A stretch of DNA of 64,000 bases, taken from Spizellomyces punctatus DAOM BR117. Taxonomy: Eukaryota. Position numbers and translations under genes: made by a program. The stretch's first letter is position 1; every line of letters starts with the position of its first letter. A model generated the notes under the pieces. It ran no database searches, was not told the DNA's origin, and saw nothing but the letters and a program-made list of their open reading frames with translations. This document shows positions 19 through 52,504 of the stretch, piece after piece. The DNA is taken from assembly GCA_000182565.2 (NCBI GenBank), contig KQ257470.1; one strand, 5' to 3'.

Positions 19-1819
<1,801 letters not shown>

Positions 1820-4649: not shown

Positions 4650-6047
4650 TGAGAGAATACTCCAAAATCTATGATTAGTGGCTGTCTCGAAATAGCTTTG
4701 TTTACCGTGCTTGTAGGACTTTAATATGTAGAAGCGCCGGTCGCTTAATAATGAACCGCTGTGAATTTTCCGCACGTTGAGCTTTTACTTGCTGTGAATG
4801 GGCGTGATTATCGAGTCAGTAATGGTAGCTCCAGAGCAAACAACTTTACGTCGACTTTTGCCATTGCAGATTTTGCATCCCTTCCCATCGGAAAAATATC
4901 TGGATATGTCAGAGGAAAGAGCAAAAAAGGACTACTCATATCTTGACGTATTCTGTGTCAACGGGAGTGATGTTGAATCCAGGTGATTTGGTTTTGGAGC
5001 AAGCGTCGGATAAAGTTCCGATCGGGTGACTAAGCGACTGGTACGTGGGCTGGCTGACGGACTTGACAAGCCCTGTACCATCCAAATCCCTGGCCAGCAC
5101 CGCCTTTCCATGTTATTGCCTCGACAGTCTTTTGCAAATAGTAGAGTTATGACCATACGTTATTAGTAGCATGAAATCATGGTGGCATTGTGTGATGTGA
5201 ATGGAGTTATTATAGATGAATCTAGTGAAAGTGCCTAGAACCAGAGATGCCTGACGATGCCAGTAAACCTGTGTGGAGAATAGGATGACGCTTCACCTAG
5301 CAGACTCATCATTCTCCACAATTCCCCTCCAAGTCTTACTGAGGCTGCCCTTGGCGCTCTCCCTCTTACATACAAGGGAAACCCTTGATGCCTGCAGGCC
5401 AATCCGGGGCCCGATTCAGGATGGTTCTCAGTAGTACTAACTCAGCTCATTAAGAGGAGAACGCTTTTACCTTTTTCTCCGGAATAACGTAAACTAAAAA
5501 GAGAGAAAATACTCATATTTGACGTACGATGTGTCAGGGGTGACTTTCCATGGCATTGAAATAGTCAGGTGTGAGCTCATCCAGTGCGAGCTCATCCATA
5601 CCGCAGCGCGGCAGTAGGAATGGCAGGGATGAGTTCACGCACACTGGCAGTGTGAGTATGGGAACGCAAGGGTTATGTTTCGGCGAGATCTGTCAGAGAG
5701 AAAGTTCTTTTTTCCTCCATCCATGGTGTTCACGATCTGTTAACTCGCACGAGACAGAGCAGGAAGACCATGGACTAGGGTTGGATGCTCGCCTGCGCCT
5801 GGCAAAGCAAGAAGGTTGTTGGGCTTGAAAGCACCGCCTCCACCACTATACTGAGACATCAGCAAGAGAATCAAACCTTCATCATCTCCTCTCCTCCTTG
5901 GTTTCACTGACAATTCAAGCTCACAGCCCTTTATAAAGAGTGCGCTGGACATTCAGCCCTCATAATCGGTCTCAGATATCACGTCCGCAGTGCTCGCCCA
6001 ACTTCCAGCCCATCGCCATCCAACAGGCTTTGCCGCATTTTTCAAAC

Positions 6048-8700: not shown

Positions 8701-11344
8701 ATGGGATGTGGCGCTTCATCTGAGAAGGGCCGTTCAAATACGGTTGTTCCAGCAACTGCCCCTAAGCTTGAAGACAAAGCATTCTCCGGCAATATTGGCC
8801 ATGCGGATCATTCTCGAGAAGTCCTTGCGAAAAATGAAGATGTAAAGCCTACCACTGTGGACCTGAAGCGAGATGTAACTTCCAGCGCACAAATTGATAA
8901 TGCACAGTCTGCCATCACGCCGGACGAAGCACCAGATGCGACCAAGGATACTGCGAGAGCTTCTTGTAATCAACTGCGACATAGCGATCAGTCTGTGAAT
9001 ACACCAGCACACGAGGGAGCCGTTTTCCCTTCGATTAGATTGTTTTTGACATCTGGCCCAGACTTGTATGTACGTATGTCCAGCACCTTTGTTGGCTGGT
9101 AGGCCTCCCAAAGACGTTTAATTCATATACTGACGTACGTAGGCTGAACGCGATGTCTTGGCAAGGGAGGTGTTTCCTGGTCTGGAGCGGGAGGTGCGCA
9201 AGAAAGGCCTGGATGCGTTCACCTTCATCGACTTTCGGTAAGCCTTGATGCGGTAATTCTGTTACCTGGGATTCAATGCTCATGGTGCTGGTTTGTAAAG
9301 GCAAGATCTGCCTCGGTATACCCCAACCGACTCCACAACGCTGCTTCACGCTTTGATGCACATAGAACACTGTCGGCCATATTATATTGGGATAATAGGC
9401 CATTCCTACGGTTGGATACCAGATATGAATGATCCAACCCACATTTCCTCGGCCACATTAGTCAAGTACCCCTGGCTAAGAAAATACGAAGGGGCTTCGA
9501 CAATGGAATTAGAGATGACATACGGCGCTTTGGATCGAGACTTGGTCGGAGATGACTTACAAGCACTTTTTTACATCAAGGCAGGAGAATCTGAGCAACA
9601 TCCGATGAGTGACAATGGCTCGGTTGTGTCGTTGCAAAATGCACAGGAGCAAACCCTAGAGAATGATCGCTTGGAACGATTGAAAGCGCGAATAAAAGCG
9701 GATGCGATAGCAAAAGTGCGAACGTTTGATTCCGCGGAACACCTCGTCGAGCTAATGAGAAAGGATTTGTTAGAATTAACCAGTTCAGCTACATATCTGG
9801 ATCCTCGACTGGCTCTTCAGCATTCATACGCCCTGGCAATGACAGGTTGTCTACCGTATCTACAGATATACTCCCAGCTGGACGAGTTAGTGGAAAGCGG
9901 TATGGGCGAGAACTCGAGCAAATGCCTGATGCTGACAGGACCACCTGGGAGAGGTGTTTCAAGTGTCCTTGCAAATTGGATTATACACCAGAAACAATTG
10001 TCGCAATCGACATCCCACCCGAGGAGGATCGTAATGCATTTTGCTGAATGCAACACAGAGTCCTCTGATCCAGTCAGCATGCTGATGAATATCATGCATG
10101 ACATATACCCTGTCGGCAGGGAACCGGCGTCCCTCCCAGCAACACCCCAGGGAATCTTTTCGGCGTTCCGCTCCATGCTCCAAACTGTTTCAGAACATCT
10201 CATTGTTGTTATATCCTCCCTTCACCTTTTGGAAAATATTTCCAATGCCCATCATTTGTCGTGGATCCCTGACAGCTTGCCACCGAACGTTACCCTCGTT
10301 TTATCTTCCGCCGCCGATAGTGCACCCGCTGTCGCTGCTCGAGCAAGAGGATGGAAGGAAATTTCTGTGAAGTCCCTGACGTGTGCAGAAAAGCAAGACT
10401 TGATCAGCAGTCTGGAGGACAGTAGTGGCGATGCCACCAAAACTCGTCTTTTAGAGGCGATAGCAAGAAATAAGCTAATTGACGATCCCCTGCTCATAAT
10501 CCTCCTCTGCTCACATTTCAACAACCTCCCGGGTGGCCTCTCGGCATCGCTCATACGCACATTTACGATGACCAATATTCACACCATATTGACAACAGTC
10601 TTGGTATCCCTCGAAAAGACTTTCGCCCATCATATCGATACTCTCCTAAACCCACCTACACGAATCCCGAATAATCATGCTTTCAAAGTCAACCTGCCAA
10701 CTCAGACGACGCCTCACCCTCTGGCAGCGACTCTTGCCCTCATCTACGCGACGCACACTGGGATTTACGAGGAAGAAATCCGCGGCATGCTTTGCATATC
10801 CCATCGAAGTTGGGCGGCTATCTTTAATGCCATTGGTCCACTTGTTGTCTCCTCTTCAGGGAGGGTGGTATTCATACATCCCGCAGTTCGAGCCGCCGTT
10901 GAAACACGATATGTGCCGACCAACAGATTGCGGAAAGGAGTATATACCTCTCTTGCAAGGTTTTTCTTTAAAAGAGGAGAATGGGATGTACGAGCAGTCA
11001 AGGAAGTTGCATGGGCGCTCGTACGTGGTGGAGAAGGTCAACATGTGAATTTATGTGGATGGCTCGTTAGGCCAGAAGTTGTCCGACTCTTATTGAGTAA
11101 AGGCGAGTCTGCAACAATGTTTCGGTTGTGGAATGCTGCTGGTGGAATCGGACTGGCTAAAAGACTGTACAGCCGCCTCATGGAGACAAAAGACATGGAT
11201 AAGGATGAAGTCGTTCGGATTTTGATGGATGGCAAGGAGCCTGATTTGTCGCTTTCCGACCATTCCTTCATCTCCACCGAGCTGTTTACAAGTGCAGATC
11301 AGCAACTAATCACACGGTATTTGACCGCATGTGAATCAGGTTGA
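8701..11344 (+). CDS. N-acylated DUF4062 plus NACHT/STAND-like P-loop protein (NPHP3/TEP1/NWD-like)
   Basis: MGCGASS N-terminus. IRLFLTS...ERDVLAREVFP...FIDFR and CRPYYIGIIGHSYGWIP...STMELEMTYG fit DUF4062. LMLTGPPGRGVSSVLANW is P-loop-like, followed by LSWIPDSLPPNV and FIHPAVRAAV. Confidence 0.7.
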
Positions 11345-49622: not shown

Positions 49623-50189
49623 TCACTTGTCATCCTCAACTTCCGATAAATTTGAATACTGATATGTTCTGGCACGGTGGACCTCCAGGATGAACTTGTC
49701 CACAATTTCCTCGATGATACCAGATATCCTTGCTTTGATGGTTTCGACAAGATCTTGTAACTGCTTCTCGAAGTCCGCTGTGACGGGTGTTTCCCCGTAA
49801 CCAGGATTGAGCATGTATATACCCAGATCAGTGTAGCACTTCAAGAAGCGGGGCCAATCTTCCAACTCCAATTCTGCTACGTGCATTATAGCTGTTTTGG
49901 ATGCCGATTCGACTCTGTAAGCAGTGTTCGGCCCACATGATTTTATCATGGATTTCAGTTGTGGAAGGTATACGAGGGTAATGTTGCCATCCATCGTCTT
50001 CTCAATATCCAACCACACCTCGTCATCGATCGTCCGTAACTCCTTCACTCGTTCCTCTAGGTATAATCGCATACGCTTTCGGAACTCCTTAAAGGAACCC
50101 AGCGATCCATCAATAACCTCCCTCGCACTGCAAAGTTGAATCGAGAATAGTGTCAAGACGAGGATGCTCCAGAGATTAATGAGCCTCAT
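49623..50189 (-). CDS. Intronless secreted hypothetical protein, about 188 aa, helical
   Basis: Signal peptide MRLINLWSILVLTLFSIQLCSA followed by an open, charged helical ORF. No domain recognised. Confidence 0.65.
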   Translation of the reverse strand: MRLINLWSILVLTLFSIQLCSAREVIDGSLGSFKEFRKRMRLYLEERVKELRTIDDEVWLDIEKTMDGNITLVYLPQLKSMIKSCGPNTAYRVESASKTAIMHVAELELEDWPRFLKCYTDLGIYMLNPGYGETPVTADFEKQLQDLVETIKARISGIIEEIVDKFILEVHRARTYQYSNLSEVEDDK

Positions 50190-50850
50190 CTTGTGCCGAT
50201 AGGTAAATTCCCATAAAAGCTCACTACTCTGCCATCCGAGAGGTGGAAAGTTTATGGCAAATCGAGTTCTTATGTGAGTGTGGCGCATTAAGGTTAGGGC
50301 TCATTCAGCTATTCTAAGATCGGAAGCTGTTTATTCATATTCATCTGAAAAAGACGTGTTTGAAAGCGTTCTTTCTGGGCTTTCTGCTGATTATATCACG
50401 ATTGGAACAGTGAAGCGCCACAAGGTCAGAATTAGCGGGGTGGGGTGATGAACCTCGCTCCCTATTGCAGGCGGAAATCGTCGATATCCCCGTCATCACG
50501 CGAAAAAAGTGCCATCTCCATAAACACACATTGCGAATTGCAAGAGAGAGCAGAGAGAGCGTCATGAAATATGATCAACAAACCTGCTATCCAGCGAAAG
50601 CAGCCAATGCACCAAGCGATAATTCCAATATTCAAAGCCAAGTGTCAAATGTTTACAAAAGTAAACAAATGACCCGTTCGCTTAATTGTGGCAATCATCT
50701 GCGGATGGCACAGTTTTATTCTGCTGGGGAACGTGATCGCGTGTGCTGGCAGCGATAAGTGCATTCTCCCACTTCAAAGTCATCGTTGCCAACAATTTCT
50801 TTTAGAATTCTATTTATGCATCACAATCTATAGACGCTGTGGTTACAATT

Positions 50851-52504
50851 ATGGCGGAACCCATGGAAAGCGCGTTCGCAACGGACGTGCATGGACATTC
50901 AAAGTTGGGAGTTGACTTTGCGGCGGGCATTGTTGGGGGTACGTCGCTGCAAGCAAATCTCGCGAAACTTTGTGAAAGACAAGGTCAAATGTCTAATGTC
51001 TTGCTTTGCGCTGGTGCACTTTGTCTGTCTTGCAGGGTAAGTATCGCATTTTACGAGCGAAGGTCGGAGAAATAGAGGGAATGCTAAAAGAGTTTGATGC
51101 AGGTGTGCGGGAGTTTTGGCAGGGCATCCACTGGTATGCTTTCCGCAATGTCCAAGATTTGCGCTTTTATGTCTGCTCCACTGAAATGCTCACCGCGGAT
51201 AGTTGGTTTTTGTTTCGGGCGTCATTAGGATACAATAAAGTGAGTGTTACCGCGTTTGTGGGAGTATCTGTCGACAGGCGTGCGGTGATCCTTACAGTAT
51301 GGCCCATTGTTGCGTTTCAGAGTACGTTTGCAAAGTCAGGCAACGCAAGGTGCGAGATATAGAGGGACGATGCATTGCCTCACAAGCATAATTAGAGAAG
51401 AAAGGGTTCGTGATGCAAACAATGTCGTCCGAATCTCGGGCACCGCGTTCTAACGTAGATGAATAGGTATACGGTCTTTACAAAGGCATGGCGTCCCCGC
51501 TAGTTGGAGTGGCGGTAATAAATAGGTACACCCCAGCCACTTGGTGCAGATAGGCTCGTCTTTGTTGATCGTTTGCAGTCTTCTCTTTGGCGTGTACGGA
51601 TTTTTTCTCCGACACCTCGGACCGGGCGAAAACGCGGTTTGGAGTATATTTCTGGCTGGCTCAGCTTCGGGTGCTGTCAATGCCTTCTTCAGTTGTCCAA
51701 TGGAGCTAGGTACGAAAACCCGATGTGCTCGGGTCTTAGTAGTCATTTTTTATTCTAATTCTTGTCATCGAGTACAGTAAAGATCCGTCTTCAAAATCAG
51801 CGAAGTACTTCTACGCTCCAAGGGCAAATTCCTATATATAAGGGACCTTTGGATTGTATGCGGCAGGTAGGAAAGCGACATGTGAACCTCGGCAGAAGAA
51901 CAGAAGACTGATCGATCAGTGTCCCACAGATATATAGAACCAACGGGTTGAGAGGATTTTATCGTGGACTAGCGTGTACATTGTGGCGGGAAACACCGAG
52001 CTATGGAGGTATAGCAATAGCAATGTGTTTCTGCCCATCCTGAACTGATGAAGGCTGATTTTTTGTTTTGTTCCGACGGTAGCATATTTCGCATCATATG
52101 AGATACTGTGCCGAATGATGTTGCCTGAGGATGCACCAACAAATGAGCCATCGCCAAAGTTACTGTTCGCGGGAGGCCTTGCTGGTGTGGTCGCATGGCT
52201 GGTTACATACCCATTCGATGTGGTCAAAACCCGCTTGCAGTCCGGTATGTTTCATCACGCTGTTTGCGCGTCGCGAATGGCCTCTCACAATCCCTTTAAT
52301 CTGTCAGTCGAACAAGAGACAAAACCACTGTACAAAGGCACGTTTCACTGCATGCGAACCATTATCCGATCTGAAGGGTGGGGTGTGTTGTTTAGCGGAT
52401 GGGGAGCGACAGCTATTCGCGCGTTCCCAACCAACGCAGCAACATTTTATGCGGTATGCTGGGCAAAGAATATTTTAAACAATCTTGGATCGGACGACGG
52501 ATAG
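50851..52504 (+). CDS. Mitochondrial carrier (SLC25A29/45/48-like basic amino acid or carnitine carrier)
   Basis: Three PxD/ExxKxRLQ signatures (HPLDTIKVRLQ, CPMELVKIRLQ, YPFDVVKTRLQ), plus GLYKGMASP and RAFPTNAATF. Many short exons. Confidence 0.92.

Follow-up and report, generated by a model that had tools for sequence, protein, structure and literature searches.

The DNA analyzed here, referred to as the window, is a stretch of 64,000 nucleotides (nt) from Spizellomyces punctatus DAOM BR117 (contig KQ257470.1 of assembly GCA_000182565.2), which carries a mitochondrial carrier gene on the plus strand at positions 50851–52504. Translation of the last exon was 100% identical to NCBI protein SPPG_08365. 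We modelled the gene with 11 exons and 10 GT-AG introns of 53–97 nt (Table 1), in which the second exon consists of a single G, at position 51036, between introns of 97 and 66 nt. We give this reading a probability of about 80%, the inclusion of the base in the mRNA being what we infer. An initial annotation of the same DNA had proposed such an exon, and all of the sequence elements and coordinates that it gave (the first donor, the TTGCAG-G-GTAAGT junction, the CTAAT, the final acceptor and an 11-nt exon further downstream) proved exact, as did its statement that joining the two outer exons directly is out of frame.

The product belongs to the mitochondrial carrier family (SLC25, Pfam PF00153): the model which includes G 51036 contains three P-x-[DE]-x-x-[KR]-x-[RK] signatures and aligns with its orthologues from end to end, while a search of NCBIfam returned no match. 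Relatives are named carnitine/acylcarnitine or basic-amino-acid carriers (SLC25A20/29-like) by their sources, a label taken from the names of the more distant matches. The N-terminus encoded by exon 1 agrees with the orthologues and is identical in 29 of 29 amino acids (aa) to that of Spizellomyces sp. 'palustris'. Exon 3 codes for the remainder of helix 1 as far as the start of the first carrier signature, and exons 6–11, with the five introns between them, code for carrier repeats 2 and 3. The minus strand held only short mechanical open reading frames (ORFs) overlapping the gene, none of which overlaps the interval 50939–51102.

The difficulty at this locus is one of phase. Exon 1 ends at 50938 in phase 1 and the exon at 51103 begins in phase 2, so that joining 50938 straight to 51103 leaves the reading frame one base short and a stop codon is met within the 11-nt exon. 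With G 51036 included, the coding sequence was 933 nt (310 aa) and contained no internal stop. The predicted mature product would read six G after GTT and encode Gly-Gly-Cys-Ala-Gly in helix 1, and skipping of G 51036 would be expected to cause the frameshift and the same premature stop.

One base missing from the G run in the assembly would produce an identical problem. To examine this we placed two DNA (ChIP) runs labelled as this species, X21 and X22, on 50400–51500 with a variant threshold of 1%. The bin 50918–50954, which holds the G run, was covered at approximately 133x in X21 and 21x in X22, and no inserted or deleted letters were found at that threshold over 50400–51500 in either run. 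Both runs differed from the assembly at 50596 (G>C), 50601 (C>A) and 50621 (A>C), in about half to four fifths of the reads, and because of these variants the reads cannot be a copy of the assembly. The variants themselves fall in the intergenic stretch upstream and could reflect heterozygosity, a strain difference or a repeat. An assembly error is therefore ruled out and the run is five G; a sixth genomic G in 50935–50939, the finding that the initial annotation had named as fatal to its proposal, was looked for in these reads and was not seen. Depth in X21 was about 7x at 50400 and climbed to some 185x across 50955–51100, the 5' part of the gene, which may be a promoter-proximal chromatin mark.

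Conservation of the carrier protein provided a ruler for the joint. With G 51036 the helix-1 residues are Gly-Gly-Cys-Ala-Gly, and the residue count from the GG pair to the first signature Pro equals that in all seven intact relatives. Two of these are uninterrupted coding sequences, a metagenome locus (L001, ORF 443–1369, 56% identical) and a Logan protein (P0169), and in both the GG-CAGV spacing is exact; the other five with the same spacing are from Gaertneriomyces, Cladochytrium, Polychytrium, Boothiomyces and Chytriomyces. The metagenome scan had returned seven loci, of which L002 had no N-terminus and L003–L007 (31–38% identical) were left out. A larger set was then built by searching the full library with the L001 ORF and taking the best 150 representatives, of which 143 were usable (two had no signature and five too little upstream sequence). 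Among these 143 homologues the 24 residues before the signature Pro contained no internal gap in any, Gly stood at –13 in 141 and at –9 in 142, and the one-nucleotide model keeps both. When only the 121 rows that clearly represent repeat 1 were considered, Gly was found at –13 in 119 and Gly, Ala or Ser at –9 in all 121. The helix-1 spacing claimed in the initial annotation thus matches 141–142 of the 143 homologues as well as the two uninterrupted relatives. Since Gly is near-invariant at the split codon, the middle base of that codon must be G, and 51036 is G. In a small orthologue profile the one-nucleotide model scored 511.6 bits, compared with at most 506.0 for five rivals.

The lone G lies directly between an AG and a GT, and each of the flanking introns has its own donor, branch-like site and acceptor. 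In intron 1 the branch A of the CTAAT is 39 nt away from the 3' end and the pyrimidine fraction is 0.68; going downstream from the CTAAT by 8 nt or more, the first AG encountered is 51034–51035, the proposed 3' splice site. The GTAAGT of intron 2 is the best donor in the gene, and the branch A of its CTAAA lies 15 nt from the 3' end. Taken as a single intron, 50939–51102 would be 164 nt, compared with 53–95 nt for the other eight introns. U12-type introns were set aside given the donors GTACGT and GTAAGT.

The likelihood of finding this arrangement by chance was estimated from 20,000 dinucleotide-preserving shuffles of the 164-nt interval in which the outer donor and acceptor were kept, and a motif YAG-N-GTRNGT with at least 45 nt on each side was sought. 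The motif appeared in 85 of the 20,000 shuffles, in 18 with N being G and in 4 with GTAAGT. Across the window a looser motif, YAGNGTRHGT, had 7 matches where 3.65 were expected, and at least 7 were obtained in 7 of 100 shuffles. The AG-N-GT motif is by itself not rare; what is unusual is its place in this interval. Five of the window's matches lie outside the carrier gene, at 926–935 (minus strand), 5637–5646 (minus), 5648–5657 (plus), 10751–10760 (minus) and 38139–38148 (plus). The first of these closes a 101-codon open frame as an ordinary exon end and the other four have no upstream pyrimidine tract; with open frames or purine-rich sequence ahead of them, all five look like ordinary exon ends or chance matches, and none resembles a one-base exon.

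Table 1. Elements of the carrier gene in the window, with the proposed one-nucleotide exon and a spurious annotated intron.
Feature	Position	Strand	Remarks
Exon 1	50851–50938	+	88 nt from ATG; ends within second Gly codon of the helix-1 GG pair
Five-G run	50935–50939	+	Last G is first base of the intron-1 donor; T comes next
Intron 1	50939–51035	+	97 nt; donor GTACGT, branch-like CTAAT 50993–50997, pyrimidine-rich tail, acceptor TTGCAG 51030–51035
Proposed one-nucleotide exon	51036	+	G; would be middle base of a Gly codon split G/G/G
Intron 2	51037–51102	+	66 nt; donor GTAAGT 51037–51042, branch-like CTAAA 51084–51088, acceptor GATGCAG
Exon 3	51103–51133	+	31 nt; first base completes the split Gly codon
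Intron 3	51134–51228	+	95 nt; GTATGC..TTAG
11-nt micro-exon	51229–51239	+	Within first carrier signature; present in X6 spliced contig
Intron 4	51240–51320	+	81 nt; absent from X6 spliced contig
Exon 5	51321–51405	+	85 nt; X6 contig continuous across 51321–51404
Annotated 'intron', spurious	51350–51395	+	46 nt; within real exon 5; brings the public model back to the true frame
Exon 6	51467–51525	+	Gene model
Exon 7	51579–51709	+	Gene model
Exon 8	51778–51866	+	Gene model
Exon 9	51930–52008	+	Gene model
Exon 10	52083–52244	+	Mito_carr match, E 1e-10
Exon 11	52308–52504	+	Includes stop; Mito_carr match, E 5e-11

The public annotation of the gene shows the consequences of omitting the base. The 353-aa SPPG_08365 protein (P0001 in our collection) was matched letter for letter by exons 50851–50938, 51103–51349 and 51396–51405 together with exons 6–11. 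In this model 50938 is spliced to 51103 and the 247 nt of 51103–51349 are then translated out of frame, from exon 3 through introns 3 and 4, with the 11-nt exon between them, and into exon 5, before a 46-nt 'intron' restores the frame. As a result the public model contains two Mito_carr repeats where the orthologues contain three. The 'palustris' annotation is broken in another way: exon 1 is read through intron 1 in the five-G frame, the exon ends right after ..GCAGG, and the reading resumes at an AG inside exon 3. The end of this annotated exon coincides with the position of the S. punctatus GTAAGT donor, and since gene finders require a GT or GC donor, AG-G-G[T/C] would be kept in 'palustris', as judged from its protein. 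The read-through of intron 1 there differs by an indel in the pyrimidine tract and by CTAAT being read as CTGAT (Asn to Asp).

Comparison of the two Spizellomyces species revealed that 258 of 266 coding residues were identical, compared with 47 of 61 in the intron read-through (Fisher p 1.5e-6). The pattern indicates that the gene is under purifying selection in two species with the same phase problem. Since the five-G phase problem is common to both, a productive reading of the gene must exist in both. Other chytrid orthologues were also found to be mis-modelled near the joint, namely P0003 (Phlyctochytrium arcticum), P0170 and P0171 (Batrachochytrium salamandrivorans), P0174 (B. dendrobatidis), P0004 and P0005; in two of them the GG pair was followed by 2 or 20 additional residues, one had an intron-derived start as its N-terminus, and two had no N-terminus. 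The position of the intron at the joint appears to be ancient and to give gene finders difficulty. An uninterrupted ORF of 221 aa (49623–50288, minus strand) lies some 560 nt upstream of the carrier ATG, from which it diverges.

Transcript evidence was obtained for the part of the gene downstream of the joint. Run X6, which is recorded as possible DNA under another organism label, contained a spliced 858-nt contig 100% identical to the window, with a word depth of 51, and this contig is cDNA of S. punctatus. It skips 51405–51465, a joint which can also be cut one place rightward to give intron 5 at 51406–51466, and ahead of 51321 it carries 12 loose letters, namely the final base of exon 3 and then the 11-nt exon. 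This confirms introns 4 and 5 as well as the 11-nt micro-exon, and for intron 3 the support amounts to a single base. The 11-nt exon at 51229–51239 which the initial annotation had predicted is thus borne out, and because it is present in cDNA, the use of a micro-exon in this very gene supports the one-base exon.

A number of observations weigh against a one-base exon at 51036. The annotated protein of P. arcticum has two extra residues at this place which, if genuine, would mean that the length here can vary to some degree. The pyrimidine tract of intron 2 is weak (0.32), and the branch-like CTAAA of this intron matches CTRAY only in part. Where exon 5 begins, the sequence CAG-A-GTACGT (51318–51327) mimics an acceptor-N-donor, and the X6 contig reads through it with the GT unused; the GTA CGT there codes for Val-Arg of the carrier signature, and an AG-N-GT motif alone is insufficient for an exon. 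Conservation of AG-G-GT in 'palustris' is read from an annotated protein of a close species (about 21% aa difference in the intron read-through) and weighs little. RNA run X20, of which about 6% was read, yielded 36 reads of at most 60 nt, 28 of them placed only partly, and no splice joint at the listing threshold; among the sequencing runs on record, none is listed as an RNA holder of the stretch. The X6 contig starts a little 3' of the disputed joint, its first letter being the one ahead of the 11-nt exon, and among six candidates from the protein collection the exon-1 peptide occurred only in the two annotated proteins and in no transcript-derived one.

Allowing GT or GC at the donor and AG at the acceptor, alternative readings of the joint came to 30 in-frame, stop-free single-intron solutions and 6 two-intron solutions using the outer sites. 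Among the latter only the one-base exon has a pyrimidine-tract acceptor together with a consensus donor; the other five, like the 30 single-intron solutions, were rejected for their signals and on protein conservation. One of the 30 single-intron solutions runs from a weak donor, GTCGCT at 50943, to the acceptor ending at 51102, adding 4 nt to exon 1 and one Thr between GG and CAGV. Its profile score falls just 5.6 bits under that of the one-nucleotide model, and the P. arcticum annotation likewise has extra residues here. However, the ten donors of the gene all lack the C that this one has at +3 and at +5, and a much stronger GTACGT is just 4 nt away; moreover this solution would place Thr where 142 of 143 homologues have Gly, displace the Gly of –13 found in 141 and create an insertion found in none of the 143, and it leaves the coincidence of AG-G-GTAAGT (18 of 20,000 shuffles) without explanation. 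We consider this solution very unlikely. Splicing from the donor at 50939 to an AG inside exon 3 (51113 or 51122) would also be in frame, stop-free and GT..AG, at the cost of helix-1 residues. The sequence upstream of both acceptors is purine-rich, conserved residues are lost, no homologue of the 143 has a deletion here, and the profile scores fall to 491.8 and 482.1 bits against 511.6, which leaves this route extremely improbable.

The same mRNA could in principle arise from one non-canonical intron, either 50940–51102 (TA..AG) or 50939–51101 (GT..CA), with G 51036 uninvolved. As there is a G on both sides, the six-G cDNA would be identical to that of the one-nucleotide exon, and since that exon is itself a G between Gs, such a cDNA alone cannot separate the two. 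The other eight introns of the gene are all GT..AG, though, and this reading would leave the internal acceptor-G-donor, the branch-like sites and the 164-nt length as coincidences. To our knowledge, introns without G at position 1 or without a terminal AG are extremely rare, and this rarity counts further against a shifted junction, which we hold to be highly improbable. A gene which is defective or mostly unproductively spliced, with 50939–51102 removed whole so that the frame shifts and translation stops within the 11-nt exon, would use the splice that the public annotation assumes at the joint and would fit the low-looking expression in run X20. It does not fit the far better conservation of exons than of introns in two species both with five G, the 933 nt which contain no other disruption, or the presence of the downstream part as a spliced cDNA contig at a word depth of 51, and is very improbable. 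Finally, recoding might restore the frame after single-intron splicing, if ribosomes shifted by –1 on the G run or if a polymerase slipped and inserted one more G, and a five-G homopolymer in the spliced mRNA could let a Gly-tRNA re-pair. The heptamer is no classical slippery site, no stimulatory element was seen, though none was searched for, and the internal splice signals would again be unexplained. We know of no precedent for recoding in nuclear carrier genes, which also counts against it, and rate recoding as extremely unlikely.

By these measures the one-nucleotide exon is, among the 30 single-intron and 6 two-intron solutions, the only predicted in-frame solution which combines strong signals with the near-invariant helix-1 spacing. 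The initial annotation had called it apparently obligatory, a view that is partly supported: frame, DNA reads, signals and conservation all uphold it, and the exon is strongly inferred. The case is strong because the DNA is correct, and because the frame, the protein ruler, the splice signals, the rarity in shuffles, the selection on the gene, its use of a micro-exon and the precedent in Fusarium, described below, all point to G 51036.

As for mechanism, fungi recognize short introns by intron definition, and the introns of this gene (53–97 nt) are probably handled in this way, each mini-intron being spliced through its own signals. Because the U1 site on the GTAAGT overlaps the AG of intron 1, the two removals would have to be consecutive, which is the sequential order that the initial annotation had proposed. 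If intron 1 were removed first, exon 1 would be joined to G/GTAAGT and a strong donor re-created, much as at a recursive splice site shifted by a single base; if intron 2 were removed first, TTGCAG/GG would stay a normal acceptor, and thus either order appears workable.

The exon may have originated as a lineage-specific repair of splicing, in which a G was lost at the end of exon 1 in Spizellomyces and the frame was rescued by an exonized intronic G; we regard this as possible but put it at somewhat less than even odds. The ancestor would have had one phase-2 intron and an exon 1 ending in six G, and the exonized G would have sat between a cryptic acceptor and a cryptic donor, turning an intron of about 164 nt into two. 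The annotated proteins of P. arcticum and B. salamandrivorans are consistent with this, as their insertions after the GG pair start with Tyr and a G-initial codon, which corresponds to read-through of a GTAYGN donor in phase 2. 'Palustris' reads Thr-Ser, corresponding to a GTACGT donor in phase 1, and the acceptor side in S. punctatus is still in phase 2. The P. arcticum and Batrachochytrium structures are deduced from proteins, and the 20-residue Batrachochytrium insertion could not be decoded as a simple retained intron. Origin by rescue has been postulated for a one-nucleotide exon of Fusarium (Nelson & Syed, PMC12940212), and the repair, if true, would be a datable example of a scenario merely postulated there (PMC12940212).

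If the exon is confirmed, one-base exons reach an early-diverging fungal phylum, having so far been shown in land plants and Dikarya, and the case sits in a conserved helix of a membrane protein. The reference protein SPPG_08365 and its 'palustris' orthologue would both be corrected, each of which loses the first carrier repeat to compensating mis-annotation, and errors of this kind distort counts of domain gain and loss as well as orthology tables. The chytrid S. punctatus is transformable. With its short introns the gene offers a tractable test case for how the spliceosome handles 3' and 5' splice sites one base apart, and a concrete hypothesis for the birth of such exons, the rescue of a one-base loss at an exon end.

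Two known systems resemble the proposed arrangement. Recursive splice sites, also called ratchet points or zero-nucleotide exons, occur in long animal introns, where an acceptor abuts a donor and nothing is retained. The S. punctatus site likewise has a juxtaposed acceptor and a strong GTAAGT donor, and the donor would be regenerated at the end of the upstream exon after the first splice, but one needed base would be retained between AG and GT and the introns are only 97 and 66 nt. Stwintrons, the spliceosomal twin introns of fungi, consist of an inner intron which interrupts a splice signal of the outer one, and the two are removed consecutively. In both cases two nested or abutting fungal introns are involved, with consecutive removal proposed for S. 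punctatus, but here the donor, branch-like site and acceptor of each intron are all intact at the genomic level. Recursive splice sites have also been discussed as a comparison for the one-nucleotide exon of Arabidopsis APC11 (PMC4674806).

That exon, A333, was proven by cDNA sequencing and by base substitutions which reappeared in the cDNA (Guo & Liu 2015, PMC4674806), and its authors propose a sequential, intron-defined and recursive-like removal of the flanking introns (PMC4674806). One-nucleotide microexons of plant APC11 and VPS55 are reported more widely in the accessible part of Yu et al. (2022, PMC8831610). As far as the available text of these sources goes, the plant cases share with the exon proposed in S. 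punctatus a constitutive single base between two GT-AG introns which is required for the frame and is missed by annotation (PMC4674806, PMC8831610), and the donor after the VPS55 exon is GTRAGT, as in S. punctatus (PMC4674806, PMC8831610). Unlike the S. punctatus base, the APC11 base is an A, distinct from its neighbours, and the flanking intron is much longer, with 422 nt in all (PMC4674806). The accessible portion of a genome-wide study of Coprinopsis cinerea gives 13 exons of 1 nt in 13 genes with long-read support (PMC12230235); from that portion it too appears as an intron-rich fungus with short introns, whose gene models break if microexons are omitted (PMC12230235).

The view of the initial annotation that one-nucleotide exons are very rarely documented is fair, although more cases are in print than this suggests, including APC11, VPS55, Fusarium CYP621A and, in the available text, the 13 Coprinopsis genes. 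Of the papers that our literature searches listed, none tied Spizellomyces or chytrids to micro-exons or one-nucleotide exons. The closest parallel is the CYP621A exon of Fusarium, which is conserved in 20 orthologues at the DNA level and was confirmed by 18 SRA reads (Nelson & Syed 2026, PMC12940212). Both are in fungal nuclear genes, both have an identical AG-G-GT and both place their base second in a Gly codon that belongs to a conserved motif; the 'intron' around it has about double the usual length in each case, a relative with no intron provides the length ruler, and the public annotations are broken (PMC12940212). The two differ in phylum (Chytridiomycota for S. punctatus) and gene family, and whereas the Fusarium exon is confirmed by reads, that of S. 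punctatus is deduced from sequence and its conservation from one close relative (PMC12940212). It is probably the first one-base exon to be proposed in a chytrid, within an arrangement that is itself already documented.

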